Positions 3,538 through 27,931 of a stretch of 64,000 bases of DNA are shown one piece after another. Position numbers and translations under genes: made by a program. The notes beneath the pieces are model-generated. The model saw only the letters and a program-made list of their open reading frames with translations, did no database searches and was not told where the DNA came from. Origin of the DNA: Planctomycetota bacterium (lineage in GTDB: Bacteria > Planctomycetota > GCA-002687715 > CAIWVZ01); contig JBGANV010000006.1 of NCBI GenBank assembly GCA_044222185.1, forward strand, positions 1 through 64,000, written 5' to 3'. Within the stretch, counting starts at the first letter, position 1. Each line of letters starts with the position of its first letter.

Positions 3538-4041
3538 GCGGGGAGCGCCAGGCTCCAGCCTGGCCGGACGGCGGGGCTCCAGCCCCGCCCTGCGCGTCGA
3601 ACCCGGATCCCTCATCGCCATGCGAGCGGAAGGTCTCCCGAACGACGTGCGGCGTTGTAGAGCAGCCAACTCGGCATTCCCGGCCGGGCCGAGCCCTGCG
3701 ATCCGGCCGCGTGAAACGCTGCGTTCCGACGATCGCGAAAGCGGGGAGCGCCAGGCTCCAGCCTGGCCGGACGGCGGGGCTCCAGCCCCGCCCCGCGCGT
3801 CGAACCCGGATCCCTCATCGGCATGCGAGCGGAAGGTCTCCCGAACGACGTGCGGCGTTGTGGAGGAGCCAACTCGGCATTCCTGGCCGGGCCGAGCCCT
3901 GCGATCCGGCCGCGTGAAACGCTGCGTTCCGACGATCGCGAAAGCGGGGAGCGCCAGGCTCCAGCCTGGCCGGACGGCGGGGCTCCAGCCCCGCCCCGCG
4001 CGTCGAACCCGGATCCCTCATCGGCATGCGAGCGGAAGGTC
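3538..4041. repeat. tandem array of family-A palindromic element, 203-bp unit x about 2.5 copies (unit starts 3538, 3741, 3944)
   Basis: Near-identical units. Each begins GCGGGGAGCGCCAGGCTCCAGCCTGGCCGGACGGCGGGGCTCCAGCCCCGCC, which forms two hairpins (CCAGGCT-CC-AGCCTGG and GGGGCT-CC-AGCCCC). The array ends in the palindrome GGAAGGTCcgtcgatcGACCTTCC. Confidence 0.85.
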
Positions 4042-5682: not shown

Positions 5683-6993
5683 GTGCCCGTGATGAGAATC
5701 TGCCCCGGACTCTCCGTCGCGCTCGTCGCGCTCGTCGCGGGAAGTGCGACGTCGCGCGCGCAGTCGCCCGAGTCTCGCGGCGTCGACACGCGTCCGACGT
5801 CGAGACCGTCGGTACCGATGATCCTCCTGCGGCAGCAATCGGGGCTGATGGGAGGAGGTTCCTACTCGCTTCGTGTCTTCGACGACGGCCTCGTGAAGTA
5901 CAGCGGCGACGAACGCGCGCTCATCCGACGCGCCGAGGCGCGCCTCGACCGCGCAGACCTCGACCAGGTTCGTCGCCTCGCAAGCCAGGTCACCGATTCC
6001 TACACCAAGCTCGTCGGAACGTGCCCGGCCTGGCTCACGGTGGAAGCCACCGACGCGTCGGGCACGACGCGGACCATGCTCCACCCACGCGGCGGGGGAG
6101 AGGCGGGCCGGATCGCGAAGGAACTCCATGCCGTCGCGCGGACGGAGCGCTGGATGGCCGGAGACGGATATCTCGGCTGGCTCTCCGCGCACCAGGAGGA
6201 TGACGGGTCGTTCAGCTCGTCGGCGTTTCAAGAACGGTGTCGAGGCGGAGGCCGGCCATGTGCGGGTACCGGTCAGCCTGGTCAGGACGTCGCGGTCACG
6301 GCGCTCGCTGCCATCGCGTTCGTCTCTCATGGATCGGGATCGACGAATCCGAGGTTGCTGGCGGCGCAGCGATGGCTCGGTCGCCGCGTCTCCGGGATTC
6401 TGAAAACGGAGCCGCTCGACGTTCGGGCGATGGTCGGGCTCGCGCTGTCGGCGGCCACGGAGCGCGTGGTCGATCCCGCGGATCTCGCGAAGTTGCAGGC
6501 GTCCATCGAATCCGAGATCACGAGCGACGGCCGCGTGACCGGGCCGGTCTTTCGAGGCGAGATGTTCTCGGGTGAGCCCGAGATGTGGTGCCTGCTCGCA
6601 CTCTCCAGGATGGAAGGGCGCACGAGCGCGCGCACCGCACGACTCGAAGGACTCGGCCAACGGATCTGCGTCGGCATGCCGAAGGACGTCGAGCCGGAAC
6701 CCGCGGGGCACGACGAGATCCTGGCGGTCCTCCGGGGGCCGCGCCTCAGTCCGCCGGCGTATCTCTATCTCGCGAACCTGGCCACGTGGTCCGATCTGGG
6801 CTTCGTGCGCACGGCGAAGATCCGAAGCCAGCCCGCGGCCATGGTCGACGCTGCAGGCTGTGAGTGGGGCAGCTTCGAGCCGCGAGGGGACTGGGGCGCG
6901 CACTACGGCCGCGTCGGCACGACCGCGCTCGTCGTCATCGGCGCAGCCGTCGCGCAGTGGTCGACTCCGCTCGCCATGTTCCGCGTGCGGTAA
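5683..6993 (+). CDS. secreted hypothetical protein (paralog family with the 4061..4300 remnant; possible alpha-alpha toroid/PSO-like repeats)
   Basis: 436-aa ORF. Signal peptide MPVMRICPGLSVALVALVAGSATSRAQS. Motifs include …DGSFSSSAFQ…, …ITSDGRVTGPVF… and EMWCLLALSRM. Stop TAA at 6991-6993 directly abuts a family-A repeat. Confidence 0.65.
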   Translation: MPVMRICPGLSVALVALVAGSATSRAQSPESRGVDTRPTSRPSVPMILLRQQSGLMGGGSYSLRVFDDGLVKYSGDERALIRRAEARLDRADLDQVRRLASQVTDSYTKLVGTCPAWLTVEATDASGTTRTMLHPRGGGEAGRIAKELHAVARTERWMAGDGYLGWLSAHQEDDGSFSSSAFQERCRGGGRPCAGTGQPGQDVAVTALAAIAFVSHGSGSTNPRLLAAQRWLGRRVSGILKTEPLDVRAMVGLALSAATERVVDPADLAKLQASIESEITSDGRVTGPVFRGEMFSGEPEMWCLLALSRMEGRTSARTARLEGLGQRICVGMPKDVEPEPAGHDEILAVLRGPRLSPPAYLYLANLATWSDLGFVRTAKIRSQPAAMVDAAGCEWGSFEPRGDWGAHYGRVGTTALVVIGAAVAQWSTPLAMFRVR

Positions 6994-7185
6994 GCGGGAG
7001 CGCCAGGCTCCGCCTGGCTGGACGGCGGGGCTCCAGCCCCGCCACGTGCGTTGGAGCGCATTCCTCATCGGCATGCGAGCGGAGGGTCCGCCGATCGAGG
7101 TGCGGCGTTGGGGAGCGGCCACTCGGCATCTCCGGCAGGGCAGAGCCTTGCCGTCCGGCCGCGTGAAACGCGGTGCTTCGCGTCG
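6994..7185. repeat. single copy of family-A palindromic element between convergent genes
   Basis: GCGGGAGCGCCAGGCTCCGCCTGGCTGGACGGCGGGGCTCCAGCCCCGCC… followed by the same CATCGGCATGCGAGCGGA…GCGTGAAACGC tail seen in the 3538-4041 array. Confidence 0.75.
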
Positions 7186-10563: not shown

Positions 10564-10696
10564 CGGAACTCAGGACTCGGCTCGCAGTCACCCTATTCCC
10601 GACGCAGCGAGATCTGCGTTCGTGGGCGACCCTACTGGAATGGGTTTCGGATCGTGAACTCGACCCACGACGGCGGCTCGGTGGGGTCGCGGTCTC

Positions 10697-11236
10697 GGAG
10701 CGCCATGTCCACCGCCGTCACGGCGGGGACTGGCCAGATCGCCGCGCGTCCCGCGCGGGCCAACCGGCGAGGAGTGGGGTTCAGTGCGAGATCACCTACG
10801 TCCGCATGATCGTCGATTGGCACGGTGCACGTCCACGCCCTCCGGACCGGACGCCTCGGCTGCGCCTCGGTCGTCCGGCGATCCTGCCGCTCGTCCTCGC
10901 CCCGCTTCGCGGCGCTGCGGTTCGAGCGGCGCTCCGTGCGGCGTCGCGATTGCGAGATCGAAAGGCGAGTGCCATCTCGACCGGGTCGCGGCTTCGGAGC
11001 GCCACGTCCACCGCCGTCTCGGCGGGGACTGGCCGGATCGCCGCGCGTCCCGCGCGGGCCAACCGGCGAGGAGTGGGGTTCAGTGCGAGATCACCTACGT
11101 CCGCATGATCGTCGATTGGCTCGGTGCACGTCCACGCCCTCCGGACCGGACGCCTCGGCTGCGCCTCGGTCGTCCGGCGATCCTGCCGCTCGTCCTCGCC
11201 CCGCTTCGCGGCGCTGCGGTTCGAGCGGCGCTCCGG
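10697..11236. repeat. family-B repeat element, two tandem copies (10697-10942 and 10995-11236)
   Basis: Direct repeats in the same orientation as copy 1 at 8325-8577. They account for the spurious 5' extension (10784-11467) of the FG-GAP ORF. Confidence 0.8.
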
Positions 11237-14419: not shown

Positions 14420-14422
14420 TAC

Positions 14423-14840
14423 GAGGAGCGCCAGGCTCCGCCTGGCCGGACGGGCGGGGCTCCGCCCCGCCCCGAGCGTGGAGAGGTCCTCCGCACCTGA
14501 CGGCTTCATCCGACGACGATCGCCTCCGCCGCATCGGACGCGACACGTCGCCGCGCGTCGATCGCGTCACCGCCGATTCCGGCGCCCCGTGCCCCGCGAA
14601 GCCAACGGGGATTCGTCGACGGCGTATTCGAGGAGCGCCAGGCTCCGCCTGGCCGGACGGGCGGGGCTCCGCCCCGCCCCGAGCGTGGAGAGGTCCTCCG
14701 CACCTGACGGCTCCATCCGACGGCGATCGCCTCCGCCGCATCGGACGCGACACGTCGCCGCGCGTCGATCGCGCTCATCGCCGATTCCGGCAGGGCGGAG
14801 CCCTGCCATCCGGCCGGGTGGAACCCGGCGCTCCGGGCTG
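14423..14840. repeat. family-A palindromic element, two tandem copies (207-bp unit)
   Basis: GAGGAGCGCCAGGCTCCGCCTGGCCGGACGGGCGGGGCTCCGCCCCGCCCCGAGCGTGGAGAGGTCCTCCGCACCTGACGGCT… occurs twice, starting at 14423 and 14630. Confidence 0.8.
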
Positions 14841-14860: not shown

Positions 14861-17053
14861 ATGCGACGGAAGATCCAATCGAAGAAGGCGCGGCGGCAGG
14901 CACCCAAGCCGCGGAGCCGACCCGTGAAGCGTCAGCCCGCGGTCGGGCGCGCGGTCGATCGCAAGGACGGCGTCGACAAGGTGCTGGGGGCGGCGAAGTA
15001 CGTCGACGACCTCACGTTCCCGGGGATGCTCCACGGCCGCACGATCCGATCGACCGTGCCGAAGGGGTTCCTCCGCGCGGTGCGCTTCGCCTTCGACACC
15101 GACGGGTTCACGATCGTCACGCACCGGGACATTCCCGGTCGCAACGTCGTCGCGGTGATCGACGACGACCAGCCTTCGCTCGTCGCCGGGCCCATCGAGC
15201 ATGTTGCCGAGCCGATCCTCCTGCTCGCGCACGAGGATCGCGAGACGCTCCACGGCGCGGAGGTCCTCGTCGACGAGGCGCGCACCGATCCGAACTTCGA
15301 TCCCGAGGAGGCTTCACGCGTCTTCAAGGAGATCCGCATCGAGAAGGGCGACGTGCGCCGCGGCTTCGCCCAGGGCGATTTCATCGTCGAGGGCGAGTAC
15401 CGCACGGGGCATCAGGAGCAGCTCTACATCGAGACGAATGGGGTGATCGCCGTGCCCGAACCGGACGGCGGCGTCACCGTGTACGGTTCGCTCCAATGCC
15501 CGTACTACGTTCACCGCGCGCTCACCGTGCTCCTCGGTCTGCCCGAGTCCAAGGTGCGCGTCGTCCAGGTGGAGACGGGCGGCGGGTTCGGCGGCAAGGA
15601 GGAGTTCCCCTCGGTCATCGCCGGCCACGCGGCGCTGCTCGCGCTGAAAGCGACGCGCCCCGTGAAGATGATCTACGACCGTGCTGAGGACATGCTCGCG
15701 ACGACCAAGCGACATCCGTCGATCGTCCGCCACCGCACGGCGGTCGCTCGGGACGGGCGCATCACCGCCATGGACATCGACGTGCTTCTCGACGGCGGCG
15801 CGTATTGCACGCTCTCGCCCGTCGTCCTGTCGCGCGGCGTCATCCACGCGACGGGTCCCTATCGCTGCGACAACGTCCGACTGCACGGTCGCGCCGTGAA
15901 GACGAACACGCCGCCGAACGGCGCGTTCCGCGGCTTCGGCGCGCCGCAGACCCAGTTCGCCATGGAGGCGCACGTCGATCGGCTCGCGGACGCCGTCGGC
16001 CTCGACCCCGTGGCGTTTCGCGAGAAGAACCTCCTGCGCCCCGGAGACGAGACGGCCACGGGGCAAGTGCTGGAGAAGGACGCGAGCGCCGCGCGCGTGC
16101 TCCGCGCCGCCGTGCGCGCGACCGACTTCCGCCGTCGCCGCAAGACGCTCCAAGGCACGCGACGAGGCCTGGGCCTCTCGCTGTTCTTCCACGGCTCGGG
16201 ATTCACCGGCGGCGGTGAGATCAAGCTCGCGTCGAAGGCGTCGCTCGAGCTCACGGAACGCGGCGCGCGCATTCTCGTCGCGAGCACGGAAATCGGCCAG
16301 GGCACGCGGACGATGCACGCGCAGATCGTGGCGGACGCGTTGGGCGTGCCCTACGACGCGATCGAAGTCTCCGTCGCCGACACGGCGCGCGTACCCGACA
16401 GCGGACCCACGGTCGCGTCGCGTACGTGCATGATCGTGGGCAAGATCCTCGAGAGCTGCGCCCGCACCATGCGCGCGCGCGTCGGATCGCTCACGCATCG
16501 CGAGTATCTGAACCAGCACGGCCCGCTCGTCATCACGAAGGCCTACGACCGTCCCGAGGAACTCCATTGGAACGAGGACACCTACTTCGGTGACGCCTAC
16601 GGCGCGTACGGGTGGGGCTGCAACGTGGTGGAGATCGAGCTCGATCCGGACACGGGCGTGGTGAAGCCGATCCGGCTGACGGCCACGGTCGATTGCGGCA
16701 AGGCGATCCACCCCGTGCTCGCGCGCGGGCAGGTGGAAGGCGGATCCGTGCAGGGTTTGGGATGGGCAATCACGGAACGTGTCGTCATGAGAGACGGACG
16801 AATGGCGAACGCACGGCTGACCGACTACTGCATCCCGACCACGCTCGATGCGCCTCCGATCGACGTGATCTTCGTCGACTCGCCGTACCGCCACGGACCG
16901 TCGGGAGCGAAGGGACTGGGGGAGATGCCCATCGACGGCCCCGCGCCCGCGGTCGTCAATGCGCTGCGACATCTCGGCGTCGACGTGCGCGAACTGCCGG
17001 CCACCCCCGAGCGCATCCTCGCCGTGGGCATGCTGCGGGAGCTCCACCGATGA
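14861..17053 (+). CDS. xanthine dehydrogenase family molybdopterin-binding large subunit (CoxL/XdhA-type)
   Basis: 730 aa with aldehyde oxidase/xanthine dehydrogenase a/b-hammerhead and Mo-binding domains (…GGGFGGKE…, …QVEGGSVQGLGWAITE…). It is followed by the 2Fe-2S and FAD subunits, each with an overlapping stop/start. Confidence 0.9.
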   Translation: MRRKIQSKKARRQAPKPRSRPVKRQPAVGRAVDRKDGVDKVLGAAKYVDDLTFPGMLHGRTIRSTVPKGFLRAVRFAFDTDGFTIVTHRDIPGRNVVAVIDDDQPSLVAGPIEHVAEPILLLAHEDRETLHGAEVLVDEARTDPNFDPEEASRVFKEIRIEKGDVRRGFAQGDFIVEGEYRTGHQEQLYIETNGVIAVPEPDGGVTVYGSLQCPYYVHRALTVLLGLPESKVRVVQVETGGGFGGKEEFPSVIAGHAALLALKATRPVKMIYDRAEDMLATTKRHPSIVRHRTAVARDGRITAMDIDVLLDGGAYCTLSPVVLSRGVIHATGPYRCDNVRLHGRAVKTNTPPNGAFRGFGAPQTQFAMEAHVDRLADAVGLDPVAFREKNLLRPGDETATGQVLEKDASAARVLRAAVRATDFRRRRKTLQGTRRGLGLSLFFHGSGFTGGGEIKLASKASLELTERGARILVASTEIGQGTRTMHAQIVADALGVPYDAIEVSVADTARVPDSGPTVASRTCMIVGKILESCARTMRARVGSLTHREYLNQHGPLVITKAYDRPEELHWNEDTYFGDAYGAYGWGCNVVEIELDPDTGVVKPIRLTATVDCGKAIHPVLARGQVEGGSVQGLGWAITERVVMRDGRMANARLTDYCIPTTLDAPPIDVIFVDSPYRHGPSGAKGLGEMPIDGPAPAVVNALRHLGVDVRELPATPERILAVGMLRELHR

Positions 17054-17478
17054 AGTTCAGCCTGAATGGCAAACGCGTGGACGTCGTCGCGCCGCCGATG
17101 AAGCGGCTCCTGGACGTGCTGCGCGAGGAGTGCGGCCTCACGGGAACGAAGGAAGGCTGCGGCGAGGGCGAGTGCGGCGCCTGCACGGTCCTCGTCGATG
17201 GGGAGATCGTGAACGCGTGCCTCGTCCCGTTCGCGCACGTCGCCGGCACGCGCGTGACGACGGTCGAAGGGCTGCCCGCCGACCATCCGCTCGTGCGGGC
17301 TTTCGTGTCCGAGGGCGGAGCGCAATGCGGCATCTGCACTCCCGGGATGATGGTCGCGGCCTCCGTGCTTCCGAAAGACGCGTCGCGCGAAGACGTGTGC
17401 CAGGGCCTCGCCGGCAACCTCTGCCGTTGCACGGGGTACACGGCGATCGTGCGCGCGGTCGAGAAGGGTCAGTCGTGA
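17050..17478 (+). CDS. (2Fe-2S)-binding small subunit (CoxS/XdhC-iron-sulfur type)
   Basis: MKFSLNGKRV… with CGEGECGACTV and CGICTPGMM…CRCTGY motifs. ATG at 17050 overlaps the upstream TGA (ATGA). Confidence 0.9.
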   Translation: MKFSLNGKRVDVVAPPMKRLLDVLREECGLTGTKEGCGEGECGACTVLVDGEIVNACLVPFAHVAGTRVTTVEGLPADHPLVRAFVSEGGAQCGICTPGMMVAASVLPKDASREDVCQGLAGNLCRCTGYTAIVRAVEKGQS

Positions 17479-18317
17479 GGCCGCTCCTCTCCGAGTGTCA
17501 GTTGCTTCAGCCGCGGTCGCTTCCCGAAGCGTTGCGGATGCTGCACGAGGCCTGGCCCGCGATCCCCGTGGCCGGGTGCACGGACCTCTACGTGGCGATG
17601 AACGCCGGCACGCTCGGCGGCGGGCGCTTCGTCGACATCTGGGGTCTCGACGAGCTGCGGCCGATCCGCGTCGTCGGTGACGTGCTCACGATCGGCGCGT
17701 TGGCCACGTGGTCGCAGATCGCGCGGTCGGCGTCCGTGCGCAAGCGCCTGCCGATCCTCGTGGAGGCGGCGCGCCAGATCGGTGGCGTCCAGATCCAGAA
17801 CCGCGGCACGATCGGCGGCAACGTCGCCAATGCGTCACCCGCGGGCGATGGCTTGCCCGTGCTCGCGGTCGCCGACGCGGTCGTCGTCGTCGCCAGCGAA
17901 GCGCACGAGCGGCGCATCCCGTTCGGTTCGTTCTACACCGGGTATCGCAAGACGGCGCTCCTGCCCGGTGAGCTCATCGTCGCCATCGAGATCCCGCCCG
18001 TGGCGGGCAGGCAGTGGTTCCGCAAGGTCGGGACGCGCGCGGCGCAGGCGATCTCCAAGGTCGTCGTCGCCGGCGTTCGCGGCGCGACGCCGCGCCTCGC
18101 CTTCGGCAGCGTGGCGCCGACCGTGATCCGCGTTCCTCGCACCGAGCAGCACCTCGCCGCCGGTGGATCGCTCGCCGACGCGAAGAAGATCCTCCAGTCG
18201 GAGATCACGCCGATCGACGACGTCCGCTCGACGGCCGCGTACCGCCGAGCGGTTTGCGCGAACCTGCTCGAGCGGTTTTGGATCGAGACGTCGGCGTCGG
18301 CGCCTGGCGCGAGGTAG
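17475..18317 (+). CDS. FAD-binding medium subunit (CoxM/XdhB-type)
   Basis: GTG at 17475 overlaps the upstream TGA. FAD-binding motifs AGCTDLYV and IGGNVANASPAGD. C-terminal domain …EITPIDDVRSTAAYRRAVCANLLERFW…. The gene's 3' end is duplicated at 22608-22770. Confidence 0.85.
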   Translation: MRPLLSECQLLQPRSLPEALRMLHEAWPAIPVAGCTDLYVAMNAGTLGGGRFVDIWGLDELRPIRVVGDVLTIGALATWSQIARSASVRKRLPILVEAARQIGGVQIQNRGTIGGNVANASPAGDGLPVLAVADAVVVVASEAHERRIPFGSFYTGYRKTALLPGELIVAIEIPPVAGRQWFRKVGTRAAQAISKVVVAGVRGATPRLAFGSVAPTVIRVPRTEQHLAAGGSLADAKKILQSEITPIDDVRSTAAYRRAVCANLLERFWIETSASAPGAR

Positions 18318-18324
18318 GCGCCGG

Positions 18325-18768
18325 TCACTCCGATCCGTCGGACGTCGCGCCGACGACGCGAAAGCCCTCACGTTCGGCGCACTCGGCAAGCCGTGAATCG
18401 AAAGTCACGAACTCGACTTCCTCTGGCCGGTCGGCGACGGCGTAGAGTGCGGCCGCCAGCTGCAGGGAGTCACCGGCCCTGAGCGGATGGACCTCGAGGA
18501 TGCGCCGCGCGCGCTGAACCACGGCGGCGATGTCGGAGATCTCGACCCATCGTTCCGAGAGCCGTCGAAGAATGTCACGCGCCGCGCGCATCTCAGGCGA
18601 ACCGAGTCCGTGATCGCGCCGTCGGCGGCTGATCGCGGACCAGACCTCGACCGGCGTCAGGCACCACACGGACAGTGACGTGTCGCCCTCGTAGAGGCTC
18701 TCCGATCTCGCCGTGAATGCGTCGCGGACCAGGAGTGGGCAGACGGCCGACGAATCCCAGAACCTCAT
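18325..18768 (-). CDS. vapC: PIN-domain toxin (VapC-like)
   Basis: MRFWDSSAVCPLLV…PLRAGDSLQLAAAL…FVTFDSRLAECAEREG shows the PIN acidic residues. The ORF overlaps the upstream antitoxin ORF by 4 bp. Confidence 0.7.
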   Translation of the reverse strand: MRFWDSSAVCPLLVRDAFTARSESLYEGDTSLSVWCLTPVEVWSAISRRRRDHGLGSPEMRAARDILRRLSERWVEISDIAAVVQRARRILEVHPLRAGDSLQLAAALYAVADRPEEVEFVTFDSRLAECAEREGFRVVGATSDGSE

Positions 18769-19070
18769 CGGTCGTTTCTCCGTTCGTCGATCAACGCATC
18801 GACGACGCCGAAGGTCTTCGCGCCTGCCGGGAGGCGGCGCAAGTTGCGCGGCAGCGGCTTGAGCGTCCCGATCCTCGCTCCGCCCGAGCGGCGAAGGCGC
18901 TCGACCCACGGCGGAATCGTGCCGGCTTCGGACGGCGTCGCTGCCGTGATCGGTACCAGGCGTGCGACGGGAACGTTGCGGTCGCGGATCTCGATCGATT
19001 GTCCGCCCCGGACGGCGTCGAGGTATCGGCTGAGATGCGCCCGAAAGTGTGTGATGGGAATGCTCTTCAT
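18765..19070 (-). CDS. vapB: Phd/YefM-type antitoxin (VapB-like)
   Basis: 101-aa ORF MKSIPITHFRAHLSRYLDAVRGGQSIEIRDRNVPVARLVPI… (prevent-host-death fold pattern), translationally coupled to the PIN gene. Confidence 0.6.
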   Translation of the reverse strand: MKSIPITHFRAHLSRYLDAVRGGQSIEIRDRNVPVARLVPITAATPSEAGTIPPWVERLRRSGGARIGTLKPLPRNLRRLPAGAKTFGVVDALIDERRNDR

Positions 19071-19255
19071 GATTTGATCATTATGGTCAGAACAGTGAGC
19101 GCGTCAACGACGGCGGTCCCGGGGGTTACGACCCGATGACCGCCAGTGCCGCCCGCGAGCCGACCGTTGACGGGCCGACCCATCGACGGCGGTCTCGCGA
19201 AGTTCGCATCCTGCCGATGTCGATCGTCCATGCCTCCGTCGTTGGGCGGGCCGAG

Positions 19256-22200
19256 CTAACGCGGCCTGTGTCGCGCGTCTTGCAATGCGCCCGCGTCGAT
19301 TGCCCATTCGATCGCCTGGAGAACCGGCAGTTCGGCGATTTCGAGATGTCGTGACGCCACGCGTCGCCTGGTGCCGTCGCCGCGATCCAGCTCGAGGTGC
19401 ATCTCCAATGGGCCCGTGGATGGCACCGGAAAGGCTGCCGACCCGTCAGTCGCGACGGGCTCGCTCATCATTCCGACGAATGTGCGCTCGGGGGTTCGTT
19501 CCACGGTTTTCGCACGCATCTCGTACCGACCGACGACGATCCGCCAGGACTCGCGGTTCGCCTGATTCAACGTCGCATTCGTGATCCGGACTGCGAGTGT
19601 CGGAGCCGCGTCGAGCACGACACGCGCCGTTGCCTGCGCAATTGTCGACTCGGTGGTCAGCAACCCCCGTTTCGAGATCTGTATGGACACGGTTCCCGGC
19701 GGGACGACGAGAACCGCGCGACCGTGGCTGTTCGTGAGGCGCGCGGGTCGCGGGTCGCCGTAGGGTGCGTCCGCCTCGGTGACCGTGATCCTGGCATTAG
19801 CCACCGGACACCCGCTTCGATCCACGACGTCGATCGCACGGGCCAGGATGCGGTCGCGCAGATCGATGGGCTGAACCCGCACGACTCCCGACGCTGGAAC
19901 TTGGTGCCGTCGACCCTGGCGAACACGACAGGGTCGATGGGGGTATGGAGTCCCGCGAGCGAGACGGTGATGACGCCCATCCCGGACTGCAGGCCGCGGA
20001 TCCGGAATGTCCCAGCTGAATCGACTCGGTCTGCGGCGTGCGCCGCCGGATGACCACCGGTGGAGGGCGCGCCGGCGCAGCTGCCCCGAATCTCGACAAA
20101 CAGCTCGATTCCTGGGACGCCATCGGGGAGGAGCAGAGAGCCTTCAAGGACCGCCGCCCGGGGAACCCTCACGACGACGTTCCCGGCGCCGGCTCTGAAT
20201 GGAGTGGGGTCGGATGGAGGTGCGTCATCTCCTTCGACCGAGAGCTGGAATTCGCCGTCGTCCACTGGCGCATAGATGGCGAAACGTCCGTCGTCGTCCG
20301 TGGCGCCGACGAGAGTTGGATCGCGGGAGTCGGTGGACGCCCCCGCCTGCGCCGTGGTCCATCGAGCGTCGATGCGAAGCCTGGCGTTCGGGACAGCCGA
20401 GCCGAGATCATCACGCACGACTCCGGAGACGAGGCAGGGGACCGGTTCCATGACGACCGTTCCGAATGCGATGTCGCGGGGCTGGGGCGACTCCGAGGGG
20501 AGTTTCACCGTCGTACTGCGAGGCTGGGTGTGGTCGCGCCAGTTCCCGAAATCGCGTGACATGAGCGCGAGTCGAGCTCCGGGCACAACCCACGCGCGAT
20601 CGTCGACAGGGACTCGGAGGCAGCCATTGCTGTCGGTGCGCGCTCGAGCCGAGTTCATCACGTCGAATACCGCCGATCCCGCGCGGGCGGGAGCCACGTA
20701 CACGACGTGGTTCGCGATCGGCTGGTTCGCTTCGTCGACGAGTCGCGCGACGATGACGGGTTTGCGCGCGCCGACGGCGAGCGAAACGTGGACCTTCTCG
20801 CCGGCTGTCGTCGGCCCAGCGACCTCCACCGACGCGAGCGCGTGTTCGTGGTCGAGTGCGTGAAGCCTGACGAGAAATCTGCCGCCGAGCGCGACTGTGG
20901 GGAACACGCACCGCCCATCGCGAACTTCGCGCCAGGATGTGCCGCGTTCCCAGCCGTGAGGATCGTGGTCATTCGACTCCACGAGTGCGCTCGTGATTCC
21001 CGCATACGCTGTGCCGCGCAGCGGGTTGCCGTCCTCGTCCGTCGCGTCGACGACGAGCTGCCCGGTCTCTGGGAGCTTCAGTACGATCGGATCGATTGGG
21101 AGATGATCGAGGTCGATTTCCGTCGGCGGCGCATCCGGAAATTCGGGGCCGAGATGAACGGCGAACATGCGTCCAGCGACGACCATCGAGCGCCACTGCT
21201 GCAAGTGGCGAGCTGTGAAGCAGCCCGACGAATCGGTCGTCCCGACGTAGACGTCACCCCGCGGCAGCCCCACGGCGGACTGGGTGATTCGTACGGGTAC
21301 GTCAGCCGCTCCGTGTCCCGACGAGTTCTCGACACGCACCTGCAGGGTGAGGTCGGCGCCCAGTTCCAGCCGCAGCAGCGATGTGCGTCCTTCGGCAGGG
21401 CTCCACGCGCGCCATCGACCAGGGGCGTTCGCCGTCAGGCGGGCTTCTGGCAGGTGGTGCAGCGTTGCCACTCCGTCGCTGCCCGTCGTGGCGGTCATCG
21501 TCGGCGTGAGTCTCTGGTAGCCCCAGTCGAGGTCCGTGGCGAGGAGCGCGACGTCGGGACTCCGCGTGACGGGTCCTCGATCCCAAGCGGTCAGCGTCGC
21601 GCCCGAAAGCGGTGCACCCGTTTCCTGCGCGACGACGAGAACGCGGACTTCGTCGCGTCCGACGGTGCGGGCCTCGTCCGTGTTGGGGTCGAACGCCGAT
21701 GTCACTACGGGCGCCACGGCGCTGAAGTTGCTTGTGGTGGACGGCGGGTCGTCCGCGGGGCGGACTGCGGTGCGGTCGCTCCCGACGAGCATGGCGGCTC
21801 CATCGGGCGTGCCGCCTCCTTGCTGGACGACGATCATGACGGCGACGAGCAGAACGAGGGTCAGCGTGCCGGTCGCGATCTTCATGGTTGCTCCCCCGAT
21901 CGTGGCCGCCGCAGCGAGCGAGGCCGTCGTGGAAAGTGTCGGTGCAGCGCAATCGCCGAGAAGCGGGGAGAACGCAAGCACCCACGACGCACGATCGCCG
22001 CCGAACGAGGAATCGAGAGTCCGACGAAGCCGTTCGAGGCCACGTTTCAGACGGGTCTTCACCGTGCCGACGGGTTCACCCGTACGAGCCGCGACGTCAC
22101 GCGGCGGCAGCCCGTGCAGATAGCGGAGGATGATTGCGTCGCGATATGGGTCGCCGAGCGCGTCGATGGCGTCGATGAGTCTGCGCAGCTGCTCGACGGC

Positions 22201-22497
22201 AACGACGGTGTCCGCCGTCGCTTGCTGCGGCGGTGCCGGAAGGGCGTCGTTCTCGTGGATCGCCCGGCGTCGCTCGCGGCGGCGCGCATGTCGCACGACG
22301 TTGCGCGCAATGCCGCGCAACCACGCGGCCGGATGGACTCGCTCTGGGCGCAGAGTTCGCAGGGCCGCAAGCCACGTCTCTTGGAGGACGTCCTCCGGAT
22401 CGACACCAGGACCCAGCAGCGCACGAACGAGACTCCGCAACCCCGTCGTCTCTTGACGGATGAAGTCGTCGTCGAGGGGATGGTCTGCGGGCGTCAT
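19256..22497 (-). CDS. ECF sigma-70 domain fused in frame to a TM helix and about 850-aa extracytoplasmic region with carboxypeptidase-regulatory-like repeats; reading frame breaks near 19885-19895 (frameshift or sequencing error)
   Basis: The N-terminal 180 aa carry sigma region 2 and region 4 (…GLPPRDVAARTGEPVGTVKTRLKRGLERLR…). There is no stop before the TM segment MKIATGTLTLVLLVAVMIVVQQ. Repeats include …VSGVVRDDLGSAVPNARLRIDAR…. ORF 19657..22497 continues in the other frame as ORF 19256..19882 (…SGCPVANARITVTEADAPYG…). Confidence 0.6.
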
Positions 22498-22607
22498 GGA
22501 TGGCCCATCATGCCCGCTCGTGGCCGATCGGGGTCAGGCGGTTTGGGGGTTCTTGGTTTTCATCGAGCCGGCGGGGGCGTCACGCGGCTAATCCGGCGCG
22601 TCCACGC

Positions 22608-22770
22608 TGGCGGCGCAGGCGATCTCCAAGGTCGTCGTCGCCGGCGTTCGCGGCGCGACGCCGCGGAGATCACGCCGATCGACGACGTCCGCTCGACGGC
22701 CGCGTACCGCCGAGCGGTTTGCGCGAACCTGCTCGAGCGGTTTTGGATCGAGACGTCGGCGTCCGCCGCC
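22608..22770. repeat. duplicated fragment of the FAD-subunit gene 3' end (copy of 18037-18300 with an internal deletion of about 105 bp)
   Basis: GGCGCAGGCGATCTCCAAGGTCGTCGTCGCCGGCGTTCGCGGCGCGACGCCGC|GGAGATCACGCCGATCGACGACGTCCGCTCGACGGCCGCGTACCGCCGAGCGGTTTGCGCGAACCTGCTCGAGCGGTTTTGGATCGAGACGTCGGCGTC is identical to 18041-18093 plus 18200-18300. Confidence 0.85.
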
Positions 22771-22802
22771 GGAGCGGTGCGACCGTCACACGGACGATCC
22801 CA

Positions 22803-25800
22803 TCACGGCAACGGGTAGGGGAGCGCGAGATCCCGACACTCGACTCCGCCGCTGTGCGTGAACACGAGCTTCGACGTCGTGAGACCGCCCGTTCCGCTCC
22901 GCAGGAACCAGATCGTGCCGTGGTCGCCGACGTTGTAGAAACCCGTCTCGAGCACGACACGCGCGGTCGTGTCCAAGACCGGCGCCGTCATCGACCCACC
23001 GGTGCCCGGAATGAGCTTGTAGATCGAGAGCTTTCCGCCGGCCTCACCCACGGCGAGCGCGTCGCTCGTGCCGTCTCCGTTGATGTCGATGAAGCGGAGA
23101 CCCGTCACGCGACCCAACGCGTAGGACGCTCGGACCGTGACGGACGACGCAGTGACGTCCAGGAGGAACACGCTCTTCCCGGAGTAGGCCGTGCTCGTGC
23201 TGGCGAAGATCGCGCCCACGGCCGCCGTGTTGCCGTCCGCATCGCAGGCCGCGATGTCAGCGCAGCGCAGCGTGACGTTCGGCACCGGGGTCGACGTGAA
23301 GGGGACCGGCCAGCCGAGGCCGTGGCTTCCATACTGGACCATGTCACCGACGAACACGTTCCCGCTCTGCGAGCCGAAGAGCACGCGATCGAGGACGCCG
23401 CCGGGAGTGAGCGAGAGGATCTTCAGCGCGGCGTCCTCCGTGGCGGACAGCGTGTTGACGCCGAACGGTCCGATTGCGGACGCGAAGCCTGATGGCGGGG
23501 ACGGGATCGGAGCGAACGTTCCGGCCTCGTTCGCCTCGGCGACGCCGCTTGCGAGACGCGGGCACATGCCGTCAGGCAGGCTCGTGGCGCTGCTGCACGA
23601 CGACGCCCCGACGACCCAGTTGTGCTCGTTCGCCTTGTCGGACGACGCGACGATCAAGCCCCATTTCCGCGCCGCACGGAGGAAGCCAGACGGCGAGCCG
23701 CTGAACGGCATCACGTCGCCACCCTCCTCGAACAGCTCGTAGGACGCGTCGACGTCCGTGTCGGCCGTCCGCCGCATCTGCTTGGGGAGAACCTGGACGG
23801 ACGTGCTGGAGCAATCCTGCAGGCGGGCGACGGTGCGACCGCCGTTGGCCGTCAGTTCTGCACCCGTGGCGAGGTTGAACCGACGCAGCTTCCACGCGCC
23901 GACGGCCGTCGAACCACGCTCGAGGACCGCCAGCTCCCATTGCGATGCCGGAGACGCGACGAGGCGGACGTCGACGGCTGTCGTCGGGAGGCGCCCTGCG
24001 ATCGCGCTCGGTGCGGAGAGCGCCGATCCGGTCGTCGTGAGGAACCGGATTCCACCGACAGACGTGAACTGCACGATTCGATCCGTGCCGCCGATCGAGC
24101 CGAGCACGAACGCGCCGCCCGGCGTCGACGTGAGCGACGACGACACCGCCCCCGTGGTGAGATCGACCGAGTACAGCGCGCCCTGGTTCACGATCACCGA
24201 CGTGCTGCCGCTGACGGCGATGTGCTCGACCGGACCGCTGTTCGCGAGCGGAATGCGCCCGAGCGCCGCGCCGAGCGAGAGCGTCGGTACGGGGATGCAG
24301 GAATCGTACTCCTGGCAGACAGCGCACGGATCGGTGCCGCCGCTCGGCTTGCAGCCCGAGGGGATCGTCGGCAGCGTCAGGCTCGTGCTCGGCGGAACGA
24401 TCGCGATCGGAGTTCCAGTCGTCAGGTTGATCCGCGCTCCGGAGGTGTCGAGTACGGTCAGCCAGTTCACGAACGGGCTCACGTGCGTGTTCTGCTGCGA
24501 ACCGCCGCAGACGATCCACGTGCTGCCACCCGACCCGGAGACGAATTCAAAATCCCGTGGTTCGTACTCGAGGTACTCGGACGTCATCTCGACGACGAGC
24601 CGAGCGACGCCGCCCACCGTCGGGAACCCGAAGCGCGCGATGTGTCCCTTGGCGAGCGACGCGTACAGCCGTCCCTTGCCGCCTTCGCTGCGGATCATGA
24701 GCTTGCACGCCATGCCGATCGGCGCCTTGAACAGTTCCGCGCGCGTCCCAGCGTCTTCGATGACGAGAGTGTCGCCGTGATCGATGTACGCGACGTGCGG
24801 GCCGGCTCCGAACGACCATCCGGAGATCGAGCCCGACGTGATGGCGGTGACGTCGCGGCGGACCGGCGCACCTGGGAAGGCCGTCTCGGCGCCCGTCGCC
24901 GGGTTGAGATAGTGAATGCCGCGCATGTCACCCACGAGGACCGCGCCGCCCGATCCGATGGTGAGAGATTTCGGGTCGACGCCCGTGAACGTGCTCCACG
25001 CCATCGTCGGCGGGTTCGTCGTGAGATCGAATTTCCGGACGTACCCCTCGAGGCTCTTCACGTAGAGCGCATCGCCGCTGACGACCGCGGTGTCGAGCTG
25101 GAGACCGAGCTCCGTCCCGAGGCCGACCAGGCTGAACGTGGGCGACGAGATGTACGTGGGGTTCGGGTTCGTCGACGCCCGCGTCTGGAGCAGGAAGTCG
25201 TCGTAGGTCGTGTCCGGCGCGTAGGCGGGCGTGCTCGGCGTCGTCATGCATGCGGTGACTGTGGCGTTCGCGACGTGCGGCGGGACCCCCGGTGCGCAGG
25301 GGAGGCCGGCTCGCATGCGAATGAGCAGGTTCTTGATGGCGTCGTCATCGTCGAAGCCGCAGGTCTCGCCGTGACCCGAATCGTCGATGACCTGATAGTC
25401 GATCCATGCCGGCAACGCCGCCTTCGTCGCGTCGACGAGATCGCGCGAGGGGATCAGGCGGTCGTCACGGCCATCGACGATCGTCATGGGGATGCGGAAG
25501 TTGCCCGGGCTGTGAAGCAGATCCAGTGCGTCGAGCGACAGGCCGTACTGGCGTGCGATCGTGGCGCCGTTGTCCAGGTCCGAGTCGTCGAGGGGACGGA
25601 GCGGATGGAGACCGGACGCCCTGCGGCGCGTCTGGATGAGTGCGTGCCATGCCTCGTAGTGCCGATAGCTCGTCGGTGTCCCACGAACGTAGACCGCGTC
25701 GAAGACGTCGGGCGCGAGCGCCGCGGACGCGAGCCCGACGCCGGCGCCGTAGGACCCGCCGGTGCGAACGATGTAGTTGTACCCCTGAGCCCGCATCAGA

Positions 25801-26450
25801 CTCGCGATCATCACGCCCTGCTGAACGGAGAAGACCAGCGGTTGGTAGTAGACGGAGTCCGCCATTCGCACGACGGCGCAGCCGCGCTGAAGCCACGGCA
25901 TGGCCTGCGAGACGTCGAGCTCCGGCGGCCGATCGAACGGCGTGTTGATCGAGCCGTCCGTGCGCGTGGGGAAGTCGTAGACGACCGCCACGTCGGGGTC
26001 CGTCTGGGAGGCGGCCCACGTGGGATCGGGCACGTAGGCCGAAAACCACTGGCGGTTGACCTTGCCTGCCAAGCGGTAGACGGAGACGGGTGTTCCGTTG
26101 AACGAGACGGTCTCCACGCACGTCGGGTACGCCACGTAACTCGAGAGCTGGATGCTCGACGCGACCGGCGTGTCACATGCCCCACCCACATAGGCGCCGA
26201 CGCCGATGTCGTAGTAGAGCTCGCCCCAGTTCTGGAATAGGTCGTTGTTGAAGTTCAGGTGCCAGCCCGAGTGGAGATCGGGGTTGGTGGGATCGTAGAG
26301 GAACGGAATCCCTGCGCCGCCCATGTAGGTCGTTTGCGCAGCGGACGTCGCCGCGAGCAGGATCCAGGCGGCGAGCCACAGCGGCCGATTGCAGCTCCGC
26401 TCACGGCGGAGCATGGCTGCACGAGGTGACGGATCGGACATGGATGGCAA
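22803..26450 (-). CDS. large secreted protein: N-terminal alpha/beta-hydrolase (esterase/lipase-like, GGSYGAG nucleophile elbow) + C-terminal beta-propeller/FG-GAP-like region
   Basis: 1215-aa ORF. Signal peptide …NRPLWLAAWILLAATSAAQ (likely start MLRRERS at about 26414). Motifs G-x-S-x-G and …IDINGDGTSDALAVGEAGGKLSIYKL…. Antisense ORF 23622..26240 is Arg-rich junk. Confidence 0.7.
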   Translation of the reverse strand: MPSMSDPSPRAAMLRRERSCNRPLWLAAWILLAATSAAQTTYMGGAGIPFLYDPTNPDLHSGWHLNFNNDLFQNWGELYYDIGVGAYVGGACDTPVASSIQLSSYVAYPTCVETVSFNGTPVSVYRLAGKVNRQWFSAYVPDPTWAASQTDPDVAVVYDFPTRTDGSINTPFDRPPELDVSQAMPWLQRGCAVVRMADSVYYQPLVFSVQQGVMIASLMRAQGYNYIVRTGGSYGAGVGLASAALAPDVFDAVYVRGTPTSYRHYEAWHALIQTRRRASGLHPLRPLDDSDLDNGATIARQYGLSLDALDLLHSPGNFRIPMTIVDGRDDRLIPSRDLVDATKAALPAWIDYQVIDDSGHGETCGFDDDDAIKNLLIRMRAGLPCAPGVPPHVANATVTACMTTPSTPAYAPDTTYDDFLLQTRASTNPNPTYISSPTFSLVGLGTELGLQLDTAVVSGDALYVKSLEGYVRKFDLTTNPPTMAWSTFTGVDPKSLTIGSGGAVLVGDMRGIHYLNPATGAETAFPGAPVRRDVTAITSGSISGWSFGAGPHVAYIDHGDTLVIEDAGTRAELFKAPIGMACKLMIRSEGGKGRLYASLAKGHIARFGFPTVGGVARLVVEMTSEYLEYEPRDFEFVSGSGGSTWIVCGGSQQNTHVSPFVNWLTVLDTSGARINLTTGTPIAIVPPSTSLTLPTIPSGCKPSGGTDPCAVCQEYDSCIPVPTLSLGAALGRIPLANSGPVEHIAVSGSTSVIVNQGALYSVDLTTGAVSSSLTSTPGGAFVLGSIGGTDRIVQFTSVGGIRFLTTTGSALSAPSAIAGRLPTTAVDVRLVASPASQWELAVLERGSTAVGAWKLRRFNLATGAELTANGGRTVARLQDCSSTSVQVLPKQMRRTADTDVDASYELFEEGGDVMPFSGSPSGFLRAARKWGLIVASSDKANEHNWVVGASSCSSATSLPDGMCPRLASGVAEANEAGTFAPIPSPPSGFASAIGPFGVNTLSATEDAALKILSLTPGGVLDRVLFGSQSGNVFVGDMVQYGSHGLGWPVPFTSTPVPNVTLRCADIAACDADGNTAAVGAIFASTSTAYSGKSVFLLDVTASSVTVRASYALGRVTGLRFIDINGDGTSDALAVGEAGGKLSIYKLIPGTGGSMTAPVLDTTARVVLETGFYNVGDHGTIWFLRSGTGGLTTSKLVFTHSGGVECRDLALPYPLP

Positions 26451-26887
26451 TCCCTTTCAGCGGTTGCGGACCGAGGCGAATCGATGAAGTCGTCGTCCGC
26501 CATCTAGTGGGAAATCCGCACGAACCCGGACGTGTGCCCGTCGCGTTTCTGACGACATGCCCGAGGACGCTCGGGTCCGGGTCTGTGTGAAGGAGGCGCC
26601 GTGATGGAGATGGCGACAGGTGGCCGGCGCGATCCGACCGTTCCTGCGACTTGCTGAGCGCGTAGTCGTCGTCGGCGAGTGCGTGCCGTCCATGGTGGGG
26701 GTGCGCCATCGCGGTAAGCGATCCTGTGTTCGTGGTGATCACGGCCGTCGCCGAGAAGCTGTTCCGCGGGGGGAAACGCACGCGCGGCGCTCCGGCCGGG
26801 GTCGCCGTGTCCCGTCCCTCCGCTCAGTGATGCGACCGAGTCCCCCCTGACGCCGACGTCGCGCGACTCGCTTCCTGGAGAGCTGAC

Positions 26888-27892
26888 ATGAGAACGGACA
26901 GACGCAGTCTTCCGCGTGCGGTGCCCGTGGGCTTCACCGCCGCCGCGCTGCTGCTCGTGGGGTGTTCGAACAACGATTCCTGGTTCTCGGGGAGTTCCGA
27001 CGCCGAGGGATCGACGTCGGCCGCGAGTGCCTCCATCGACGCGGCGACGGAACCGCCGTGGGACGGCTTCGTCGACACGTTCGCGCAGGCGAACGGCGTT
27101 CGCATCCATTACCGGATGAGCGGCCAGGGACCGGCCGTCGTCCTGCTCCACGGCTACACGCAGACGGGGTACATGTGGCACGGCGTGGCTCCGACCCTGG
27201 CGCAGCGCCACACCGTCATCGTTCCGGATCTGAGAGGCGCGGGCGCCTCGGAGAAGGCGCAGGGCGGTTACGACAAGAAGACGATGGCGCAGGACGTCCA
27301 CGCGCTCCTCGCCATGCTCGGAATCCCGCGGGCCACGGTCGTCGGTCACGACATCGGCCTCATGGTCGCCTATGCGTTCGCGGCCCAATTCCCCGAGGCG
27401 ACGGACCGCGTCGTGCTCATGGACGCGTTCCTTCCCGGCGTCGGCGATTGGACCCGCGTGTGGCTCCTGCGTGACCTGTGGCACTTCCACTTTCACGGCG
27501 AAGTGCCGCTCGCGCTCGTCCGCGGACGGGAGCGCATCTACCTCGAGCACTTCTGGAACGACTTTGCGGCCGACCGCAACCACTCGGTCCCCGAGGCCGA
27601 CCGCCGCATCTACGCCGCGGCCTACGCCCAGCCGGACGCCATGCGCGCGGGCTTCGCCTACTTCCAGGCGTTCGAACAGGACGCGGCCGACTTCGCGCAG
27701 TTCGCGCGGACGCCGCTCGCGGGTCCCATGCTCGTCCTCACGGGCGAGAAGGCGTCGGGCCAGACGTTGATCGATCAGGCCCGCCTGGTTTCGAACGACG
27801 TCCGCGGCGTGATCGTCCCAGGATCAGGCCACTGGCTCATGGAGGAGGCCCCGGAGAAGGTCGTTCCCGAGCTCCTCGCGTTCATCGATTGA
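26888..27892 (+). CDS. alpha/beta hydrolase (epoxide-hydrolase/haloalkane-dehalogenase-like) lipoprotein
   Basis: Lipobox LLLVGCS. NGVRIHYRMSGQGPAVVLLHGYTQTGYMWH…VVGHDIGLMVAY is the classic HGxP plus nucleophile-elbow pattern. Confidence 0.85.
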   Translation: MRTDRRSLPRAVPVGFTAAALLLVGCSNNDSWFSGSSDAEGSTSAASASIDAATEPPWDGFVDTFAQANGVRIHYRMSGQGPAVVLLHGYTQTGYMWHGVAPTLAQRHTVIVPDLRGAGASEKAQGGYDKKTMAQDVHALLAMLGIPRATVVGHDIGLMVAYAFAAQFPEATDRVVLMDAFLPGVGDWTRVWLLRDLWHFHFHGEVPLALVRGRERIYLEHFWNDFAADRNHSVPEADRRIYAAAYAQPDAMRAGFAYFQAFEQDAADFAQFARTPLAGPMLVLTGEKASGQTLIDQARLVSNDVRGVIVPGSGHWLMEEAPEKVVPELLAFID

Positions 27893-27931
27893 AGGCCGTT
27901 CTCTTCTTCCACACTCACGGAGTGAATCGTC

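Follow-up and report, generated by a model that had tools for sequence, protein, structure and literature searches.

The window, by which we mean the whole 64-kb stretch of DNA that was analysed, belongs to a 408-kb contig and carries an operon in the order coxL (14861-17053), coxS (to 17478) and, last, coxM. The CoxM protein is identical to P0001 on the 408-kb NCBI contig, and its NCBIfam matches to xanthine-dehydrogenase-family models all fall under the equivalog cut-offs. Between coxM and an alpha/beta hydrolase gene lie a predicted toxin-antitoxin pair, a sigma factor fusion gene, a partial second copy of the coxM 3' end, a long ORFan gene and the relic of a transporter gene (Table 1).

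Table 1. Coordinates of the features of the coxM-hydrolase region, as positions in the window
Feature	Position	Strand	Evidence or remark
coxM/xdhB-type FAD-binding subunit gene, 280 aa, intact	17475..18317	+	Pfam FAD_binding_5 (E 7e-44), CO_deh_flav_C
Repeat copy A (R_A)	18039..18298	+	R1 18039-18092; copy-A-only 106-bp segment 18093-18198; R2 18199-18298
Tail A, current last 5 codons and stop of coxM	18299..18317	+	100% identical in related strain (L004)
VapC-type PIN toxin gene, 147 aa	18325..18768	-	Pfam PIN PF01850, 25.4 bits against a cut-off of 23.6
Phd/YefM-family antitoxin gene, 101 aa	18765..19070	-	Pfam PF02604 (38 bits), NCBIfam TIGR01552
Sigma-70-like promoter match TTGACG-16-CATAAT, a short way upstream of the antitoxin gene	19080..19107	-	Consensus match only
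ECF sigma (Sigma70_r2/r4) + TM + CarboxypepD_reg/Big_1 repeat fusion gene	19256..22497	-	Pfam; sequence identical in Logan unitig L001
Sigma gene upstream region	22498..22584	.	22447-22584 97% conserved in L004
Junction filler, ~24 nt	22585..22609	.	Matches neither L004 nor other window sequence
Repeat copy B (R_B), coxM 3'-end relic, frameshifted	22610..22763	+	R1' 22610-22663 abutting R2' 22664-22763
Tail B, alternative open continuation of the relic, 18 codons and stop	22764..22818	+	Unique in the window
Gene for a 1215-aa secreted ORFan protein	22803..26450	-	GC3 0.87, codon usage host-typical
ORFan gene upstream region	26451..26726	.	With 22610-26450, the block absent beside the hydrolase gene in the related strain
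Transporter gene relic, AcrB/RND family, last ~31 codons	26727..26830	+	Intact gene end in L078
Alpha/beta hydrolase gene, conserved right flank	26888..27892	+	Homology with L078

Genes downstream of coxM

The PIN toxin gene is convergent with coxM, the two stop codons lying 7 nt apart, and its acidic quartet (D5/E41/D100/D124) is invariant across three metagenome homologues. The antitoxin gene lies upstream of the PIN gene, and an ATGA overlap between the two can be read from the sequence. By its domains, its quartet and this overlap, the pair is classed as an intact type II toxin-antitoxin system with predicted toxicity. The promoter-like site in front of the antitoxin gene (one match found against 0.1 expected) was the sole relevant outcome of a promoter and terminator scan. 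Relatives of the pair are bare two-gene cassettes between housekeeping genes, without integrases. The pair was not found in a scan of viral contigs, and a query of concatenated ORFan, PIN and antitoxin sequences returned the ORFan self-match only, the short toxin-antitoxin parts evidently having been swamped.

The sigma fusion has the traits of its family, namely N-terminal Sigma70_r2 and r4_2 domains, a TM segment and a long CarboxypepD_reg/Big_1 extracytoplasmic part. Its relatives are proteins of 900-1100 aa, mostly from Planctomycetota MAGs, at 28-45% identity, and the surroundings of the two nearest homologues (L002 and L003) have nothing in common with this locus. A frameshift near 19885 splits the gene into two ORFs (19657-22497 and 19256-19882), so it may be a pseudogene. 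Non-coding DNA inside the block amounts to only two stretches, of ~185 nt and ~112 nt. On the right flank, the ORFan protein has no Pfam or NCBIfam match and no homologue beyond itself.

A preliminary description of this DNA had listed the same genes between the two copies, had seen no integrase in the window and had proposed a GC and codon-usage comparison of the interval with its flanks. Domain searches agree with that gene content (PIN, PF01850; Phd/YefM, PF02604; Sigma70_r2/r4 with a TM segment and CarboxypepD_reg). Pfam scans of ~40 ORFs of the window (64 kb of the 408-kb contig), comprising all cargo ORFs and ~35 others, likewise found no integrase, transposase or recombinase domain; no tRNA was found in the 64-kb window, and an Rfam scan returned nothing relevant. 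The comparison sets the interval apart: GC3 is 0.76-0.79 in the four cargo ORFs against 0.92 in coxM and 0.87 in the gene at 22803, and the toxin-antitoxin and sigma ORFs have a poor synonymous-codon fit relative to both flanks.

A partial second copy of the coxM 3' end

A 260-bp stretch at the end of coxM recurs 4.5 kb downstream, with 0 mismatches in the 154 bases that the two copies have in common. The common bases fall into two exact matches, R1 (54 nt, BLAST E-value 1e-22) and R2 (100 nt, E-value 1e-47). As reported by BLAST, the R1 match extends over 62 nt (18033-18094 and 22604-22665) at 97% identity, with both mismatches at 18037-38 and 22608-09. Copy B lacks an equivalent of copy A's 106-bp segment, which ends ...TCCTCCAGT, and there is CG microhomology at the deletion junction. 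R1' and R2' are mutually out of frame because 106 bp is not a multiple of three. The duplication announced in the preliminary description is thus real, with limits within a few bases of those given there, and the internal deletion, put at about 105 bp, measures 106 bp.

After R2 the copies diverge, which bears out the divergent end that had also been claimed for the downstream copy. Tail A reads '...SASAPGAR*', with its stop at 18315-17, and tail B (CCGCCGCCGGAGCGG) would read '...SASAAGAVRPSHGRSHHGNG*', with its stop at 22816-18. Tail B and the convergent ORFan gene have 16 nt in common, at the stop of the latter. Homologues of CoxM end '...FWxET', which places tail A and tail B alike past the end of the conserved protein; the repeat homology ends 17 nt before the coxM stop (within 6 codons), where the conserved CoxM sequence ends.

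On its left, copy B begins abruptly at 22610 after the unique filler, with nothing homologous beyond, and the junction between the two (J1, 22609|22610) is illegitimate. Near J1, 'ACGC' is common to both sides (18033-36 and 22604-07), 2 nt before the exact repeat, a weak candidate for a junction microhomology. Both edges of the repeat are sharp, residual homology past either of them having been ruled out by shuffle tests (p=0.86, 0.28 and 0.13). Further duplicated segments of 200-300 nt are present in the window.

Two Logan unitigs from sample SRR28480390, L001 (18269-22639) and L079 (22734-33514), agree with the window at 100% identity. Each of them breaks off exactly 30 nt into the repeat, the point at which a k=31 graph has to end when a repeat has two copies. 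The reads therefore contain tail A and tail B as well as the junction 22609|22610, and L079 confirms that tail B is contiguous with R2.

The locus in a related strain and in more distant genomes

A related strain is represented by two contigs from one sample (SRR14932591), L004 and L078, which are assumed to belong to one genome. L004 carries the coxM end with tail A (0 differences in 184), a PIN gene with three deletions and the antitoxin gene; the sigma gene is deleted from 19161 to 22447. Between the two strains, divergence amounts to 12.6% in the toxin-antitoxin segment and to 0-3% around it. Low GC3, codon misfit and this divergence mark a putative recombining accessory segment. L004 crosses R2 without a break, and since an identical second copy would force one, the second copy is apparently absent in that strain; this absence is read from a single unbroken 946-bp contig, because the ends of L004, probably coverage gaps, are not explained by the repeat.

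In L078, the hydrolase gene is preceded by an intact AcrB-family C-terminus comprising at least the last 118 codons (ACR_tran profile positions 931-1020 of 1021, E 1e-32). Homology to the window begins sharply at ~26727, so the block 22610-26726 is absent there, and in the window it is bounded by two truncated gene ends. The alignment as a whole (26727-27903) has 98.6% identity. Within it the hydrolase gene is ~99% identical (0.9% diverged, with 8 of 334 codons differing) and the AcrB relic is ~6% diverged (6 of ~100 nt differ, 5 of them amino-acid-changing). As the related strain has the cargo at coxM, apparently without the second copy, the variable piece is the coxM fragment with the ORFan block and not the cargo. 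Measured against the closest available genome, the strain-variable part is apparently "coxM fragment + tail B + 1215-aa ORFan gene" (22610-26726).

The preliminary description had proposed to compare the locus in related genomes and to look for an empty site, in which coxM is followed directly by the gene at 22803. The comparison gave a divided answer: the same cargo lies at the same place in one strain, but the second copy is apparently absent there. An empty site was not found, because the nearest other genomes are at most 68% identical and not syntenic (the nearest non-self CoxM homologue is 68% identical). A scan of GTDB genomes, in which the source genome is not a representative, returned 48 loci, none of them syntenic. 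Ten distant coxM loci had no insertions at the coxM end, and their neighbours were ordinary.

Origin of the second copy

The most economical account of copy B is that it is a displaced former gene end, because the homology breaks off no more than 6 codons from the coxM stop, at the limit of the conserved protein. We consider the odds to lie slightly in favour of a join between two haplotypes of the coxM-hydrolase region, through one homologous and one illegitimate crossover, after which the displaced coxM end decayed. The second copy looks like a recombination scar, neither an att site nor a functional element.

On this account, the interval between coxLSM and the hydrolase gene would be variable within the species, and at least two versions of it would have existed. 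Version 1, of which the conspecific strain has a degraded form, would run coxM, tail A, PIN/Phd, ECF-sigma fusion, ..., AcrB-family gene, hydrolase. Version 2, which we infer, would run coxM, tail B, the convergent 1215-aa ORFan gene, a truncated AcrB end, hydrolase. In the window, version 1 would then contribute its left part, followed by version 2 from 260 bp before the coxM end, and the coxM 3' end would be present twice because both of the joined pieces contained it. Such a product would need one crossover in the common sequence and a non-homologous join at 22609|22610 after the ~24-nt filler. It could have arisen through a single (Campbell-type) crossover of a circularised fragment bearing the coxM end, or through homology-facilitated illegitimate recombination (HFIR) of a linear fragment. 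The transfer may have taken the toxin-antitoxin/sigma block into a version-2 genome, or the coxM fragment and ORFan block into a version-1 genome. In the product, the upstream copy would complete the working gene, and the downstream copy would be a dead relic that later lost 106 bp between CG microhomologies.

Identical copies, sharp edges and an end of homology at the conserved limit of coxM are what would be expected of the divergence point between haplotypes that share coxM only. From a divergence of 6% in the AcrB relic, 0.9% in the hydrolase gene and 0/154 in the coxM relic, the AcrB relic appears to be old and the coxM relic young. An old AcrB relic beside a young coxM relic fits a version 2 that would be long-standing and a join that would be recent. 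Version 2 itself, an intact coxM with tail B beside the ORFan gene, was not observed: the predicted tail-B CoxM protein was absent in an exact look-up, and a degenerate lineage-specific coxM-3' pattern had 0 matches in JGI metagenomes.

That same result counts towards a duplication in situ, without any exchange of haplotypes, in a genome that already had the ORFan gene next to the toxin-antitoxin/sigma block. Either a 4.57-kb tandem duplication (unit 18039-22609) would have lost most of its second copy, or a coxM patch would have been laid down by template switching in break repair, the 106-bp 'deletion' being a second switch. The identity of the copies would suit such a recent local origin, as would the CG microhomology at the internal junction and the other 200-300-nt duplicated segments of the window. 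Two coincidences would be required, however. The end of the copy would need to fall no more than 6 codons from the coxM stop, as a random endpoint in a 4.5-kb unit would in ~1% of cases, and its position would need to coincide exactly with the point at which the related strain ceases to be homologous (22584 plus 24 nt). A duplication in situ also needs an unobserved haplotype of its own, with the toxin-antitoxin/sigma block joined directly to the ORFan block, and more events. Taking both of its forms together, we judge it unlikely.

We give a somewhat lower probability again to a decayed site-specific integrative element of the CIME kind, with an attP that mimicked the last 260 bp of coxM and a tyrosine or serine recombinase. 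Direct repeats here bracket a compositionally deviant block, the left edge of which gives the target gene its end back, and toxin-antitoxin modules commonly stabilise islands. The repeat itself speaks against this origin, since it is not a short core: 260 bp at 100% identity is longer and more identical than typical att cores. In such an element, just as improbably, attL would be R_A with tail A and attR would be R_B with tail B, the integrase and transfer genes having been lost or acting in trans. CIMEs by definition retain attL and attR without integration genes (PMC5704250), and the block is visibly decaying in the related strain. Yet the cargo contains no recombinase gene or remnant, and its two short non-coding stretches are all that is left between the genes. 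Furthermore, the coxM ends of the ten relatives carry no insertions, the relatives of the toxin-antitoxin pair are cassettes without integrases, the related strain has the block apparently without the attR copy, and the adjoining block on the right, which ends in a truncated AcrB gene, is itself specific to the strain. The preliminary description had left the choice between a site-specific integrative element and illegitimate recombination; the former is disfavoured by the lack of a recombinase or tRNA in the window, by the long identical repeat and by the related strain, and the latter fits better.

There is only a slim chance that the toxin-antitoxin/sigma block is an integrase-free mini-island, which would use the 260-bp coxM 3' end as a homology 'handle', spread among members of the species as a circular fragment by RecA-dependent single crossovers and be retained through its toxin-antitoxin pair. 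In a weaker form of this idea, the leader of the sigma-fusion transcript would contain the relic in antisense, which might couple that transcript to the coxM mRNA. An assembly artefact, in which an empty chromosomal site, with coxM followed by tail B and the ORFan gene, and a 4465-bp circular or tandemly amplified molecule with the toxin-antitoxin/sigma block, or a chimera of two strains, were threaded through the repeat, is the least probable of all: an exact repeat of 100 nt is beyond the resolution of a k=31 graph and both unitigs stop inside it, so that the connectivity of R2 is not independently seen, but unitigs contain both tails together with the junction 22609|22610 at 100% identity, so that these are real sequence, the related strain has the toxin-antitoxin genes on one contig with the 106-bp segment, R2 and tail A, which attaches the block chromosomally to a full coxM there, a 4.5-kb circle without a replication gene is not a plausible replicon, and ordinary 150-nt reads would span R1 and R2.

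If the two haplotypes were indeed joined, the locus would be a natural record of the shuffling of accessory blocks between strains of an uncultured high-GC bacterium without mobile-element machinery, and its young coxM relic and older AcrB relic would date two separate events. For island finders, direct repeats of a gene's 3' end together with toxin-antitoxin cargo are not by themselves a sign of an integrase-driven element. The locus opens no new biological question.

The locus resembles ICEs, IMEs and CIMEs that insert at gene 3' ends (PMC5704250) in its intact target gene, its toxin-antitoxin cargo and its compositionally distinct block. It differs from them in having no integrase or remnant of one, in its long and identical repeat, in a site that is not reused in relatives and in a sister strain without the second repeat, and the truncated gene of the neighbouring block points to illegitimate recombination. 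The toxin-antitoxin pair is like VapBC-type cassettes in its upstream antitoxin gene with ATGA overlap, its PIN acidic quartet, its promoter-like site and its scattered two-gene homologues in unrelated chromosomal contexts; this pair, its activity predicted, would be a passenger and not the cause of the duplication.

The closer parallels lie in recombination without a site-specific recombinase. When DNA with a fragment of the lacZ end was inserted in E. coli conjugation experiments, the event was in most cases a single crossover, and 109-950 bp of the homologous locus became duplicated (PMC3240628). The present locus is similar to this Campbell-type integration in that a direct duplication of a gene end, here of 260 bp, flanks the insert, no site-specific recombinase is needed, and one copy completes the gene while the other is a truncated remnant. 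It departs from the E. coli case in being a natural event with a hypothetical circular intermediate, a 24-nt filler and a remnant minus 106 bp. Junctions formed by HFIR have 3-10 bp of microhomology (PMC3240628), and HFIR explains the orphaned 3' gene fragments that are displaced downstream in T6SS and Rhs loci (PMC5361080; de Vries & Wackernagel 2002 and Prudhomme et al. 2002, as cited there). As in the 'displacement' described for T6SS effector-immunity arrays and Rhs/CDI loci (PMC5361080), a conserved gene would serve as homologous anchor, incoming DNA would bring its own downstream version, the old 3' part would be orphaned downstream and the second junction is non-homologous. Unlike in those loci, the anchor is a metabolic gene rather than a polymorphic toxin, and what was displaced is an identical copy instead of a diverged alternative C-terminus, with no plausible function. 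Classical HFIR usually deletes recipient DNA, whereas the outcome here is a duplication.

Duplication of the coxM 3' end

The genes coxL, coxS and coxM form an operon for a molybdoenzyme of the xanthine dehydrogenase family. The preliminary description claimed that the end of coxM is duplicated with an internal deletion. Self-BLAST, a MAFFT alignment and a gapless repeat search each confirmed this and gave two matching segments (E-values of 1e-22 and 1e-47). The first pairs 18033-18094 with 22604-22665 at 97% identity and is exact from 18039/22610; the second, R2, is exact over 100 nt. Copy B lacks 106 bp, which puts the two halves of this relic out of frame, and a CG dinucleotide is common to both sides of the deletion junction. 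There is no residual similarity outside either repeat edge. After R2, copy A ends in SASAPGAR* (tail A). The open frame of copy B continues for another 18 codons (tail B), its stop codon at 22816-18 overlapping that of the convergent gene. As CoxM homologues end at '...FWxET', both tails lie beyond the conserved protein.

Two Logan unitigs from sample SRR28480390, L001 (18269-22639) and L079 (22734-33514), match the window at 100% identity. Each breaks off precisely 30 nt into the exact repeat and neither crosses R2, because a k=31 graph must break at a two-copy repeat. Reads thus support tail A, the junction between 22609 and 22610, and tail B as genuine sequence. The arrangement is unlikely to be an artefact of assembly, as the junctions are present in independent unitigs and a contig from a second strain (L004) links full coxM to tail A.

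Features of the coxM locus and other repeats in the window
Feature	Position	Strand	Details
Copy A	18039-18298		coxM 3' end
R2	18199-18298; 22664-22763		exact
Segment missing from copy B	18093-18198
Tail A	18299-18317		coxM's own end
PIN gene			7 nt past coxM stop, convergent; D5/E41/D100/D124 quartet conserved
Phd/YefM antitoxin gene			upstream of PIN gene, ATGA overlap
Sigma-70-like promoter match			precedes toxin-antitoxin pair
ECF-sigma + TM + CarboxypepD_reg fusion gene	19256-22497	-	frameshift near 19885
Copy B (relic)	22610-22763
Tail B	22764-22818
Convergent ORFan gene	22803-26450	-	predicted secreted 1215-aa protein
AcrB/RND relic	26727-26830	+	directly upstream of hydrolase gene
~200-nt GC-rich intergenic repeat family	3538-4041; 6978-7171; 14419-14791		just 3' of genes
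299-nt tandem repeat (x1.8, 97%) and dispersed copy	10684-11235; 8319-8574		tandem in divergent intergenic region upstream of FG-GAP gene
12-nt tandem repeat CCGGCGCAGGGT x9	50078-50188		within ORF 49900-51813
Rfam tRNA match	1794-1853	-	37.5 bits; model positions 5-66 of 71

The toxin-antitoxin pair and the sigma-fusion gene form a cargo between the two copies. The frameshift leaves the fusion gene as two overlapping ORFs, of 946 aa and 208 aa. The NCBI contig and L001 have the same sequence here, so this is probably a real pseudogene. Its family occurs mostly in Planctomycetota MAGs, with best non-self matches of 28-45% identity. A check of GC and codon usage, proposed in the preliminary description, distinguished the cargo from its surroundings: its four ORFs have a GC3 of 0.76-0.79 and a poor synonymous-codon fit, compared with a GC3 of 0.92 for coxM, 0.88 for coxL, 0.87 for the gene at 22803 and 0.88 for the hydrolase gene. 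Just two of ~33 other ORFs have a GC3 as low. The reported absence of an integrase also holds, with no integrase, transposase or recombinase domains in ~40 ORFs across 64 kb. ARAGORN called no tRNA in the 64 kb; the Rfam match may be a tRNA fragment or tRNA-like sequence. The 1215-aa protein has host-typical codon usage, no Pfam or NCBIfam domain, and only a self-match at E<=1e-3 among 5.8 billion sequences.

The ~200-nt repeat family has two tandem members, one of 203 nt (x2.5) and one of 207 nt (x1.8) that lies between the FG-GAP gene and coxL, plus one single copy that has diverged. The units contain hairpin-like motifs (GGCTCCAGCC / GGGGCTCCAGCCCC). The dispersed copy of the 299-nt repeat (~255 nt, 93% identity) lies 2.4 kb off. 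The ORF containing the 12-nt repeat has no Pfam match.

Comparison with a conspecific strain

A conspecific strain from a different sample (SRR14932591) is represented by contigs L004 (946 bp) and L078. L004 matches 18170-18353, from coxM across R2 and tail A, with 0/184 differences and without the break at R2 that an identical second copy would impose. Its PIN gene has three deletions and its antitoxin is 90% identical in amino acids to that of the window. It joins ~19161 directly to 22447-22584 (97% identity), the sigma gene's first 17 codons and upstream region, meaning that the body of this gene is deleted, and it ends 26 nt past 22584 in sequence without a match in the window. In L078, the hydrolase gene (alignment to window 26727-27903, 98.6% identity) follows an AcrB-family transporter gene whose C-terminal end is intact (L078 1-357; at least the last 118 codons; ACR_tran profile 931-1020/1021). 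Homology starts sharply at ~26727, so the window retains just ~31 last codons of this gene. These arrangements place truncated gene ends at both borders of 22610-26726 (the coxM fragment, tail B, and the ORFan gene and its upstream region), and it is in this stretch that the window departs from the nearest strain. The cargo is common to both.

Between the AcrB relic and the intact gene, 6/~100 nt differ (6%; 5/6 amino-acid-changing), against 0.9% for the adjacent hydrolase gene and 0/154 nt between the coxM relic and its parent. This suggests that the AcrB truncation is old and the coxM duplication recent, and thus that they were separate events. The toxin-antitoxin segment (18394-19162) is 12.6% diverged from L004, whereas its surroundings are 0-3% diverged, and in L004 it lies between deletions of 40 nt and 3.3 kb. 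The pattern indicates that this site has undergone exchange repeatedly and suggests allelic replacement of the cassette.

Distant relatives

An identical CoxM is located on a 408-kb NCBI contig; the next-best have 68% identity and come from Acidobacteriota or Gemmatimonadota MAGs. None of 48 related coxM loci has downstream genes in common with the window, and in 10 of them the neighbours after coxM are ordinary and diverse. Relatives of the toxin-antitoxin pair (45-61% identity) were found on 24 soil-metagenome contigs as bare two-gene cassettes flanked by housekeeping genes, with no integrases, cox genes or sigma fusions beside them. In two metagenome contigs, homologues occupy the same position (L068 2948-3672 and L074 6001-6414), with a mtnA-like gene on one side and a tsaD/lepA pair on the other, as judged by eye only. 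This shared position suggests that the family resides stably in the chromosome of another lineage.

Origin of the duplicated gene end

The most economical explanation is that the coxM-to-hydrolase interval existed in two haplotypes and that the window is a recent recombinant. One haplotype would carry the AcrB gene together with the toxin-antitoxin/sigma block, the other the ORFan gene directly 3' of coxM. The window's arrangement, with the coxM end present twice, would result from a single crossover within sequence common to both plus an illegitimate join between 22609 and 22610. Recombination between two haplotypes would account, without coincidence, for homology stopping where the conserved gene stops, for copy B lying at the very point where the sister strain ceases to resemble the window, and for the copies being identical. 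Identical copies would also be expected from an in-situ duplication or a templated repair patch, but either requires two positional coincidences. The preliminary description proposed a site-specific integrative element or illegitimate recombination, and this interpretation is partly supported: illegitimate recombination at the gene end fits better. An element once driven by an integrase and since decayed (a CIME in the sense of PMC5704250) is possible, but there is no trace of a recombinase and no recurrent use of the target, and no empty site was observed.

The structure is best read as a recombination scar of an already known kind and is of modest interest. Its main use is to document one such case and to warn that gene-end repeats alone do not justify inferring integrative elements. 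There is experimental precedent: in E. coli, a single crossover with circular molecules carrying a gene-end fragment duplicates 109-950 bp of the locus (PMC3240628), and homology-facilitated illegitimate recombination is the explanation given for orphaned 3' fragments at T6SS and Rhs loci (PMC5361080).
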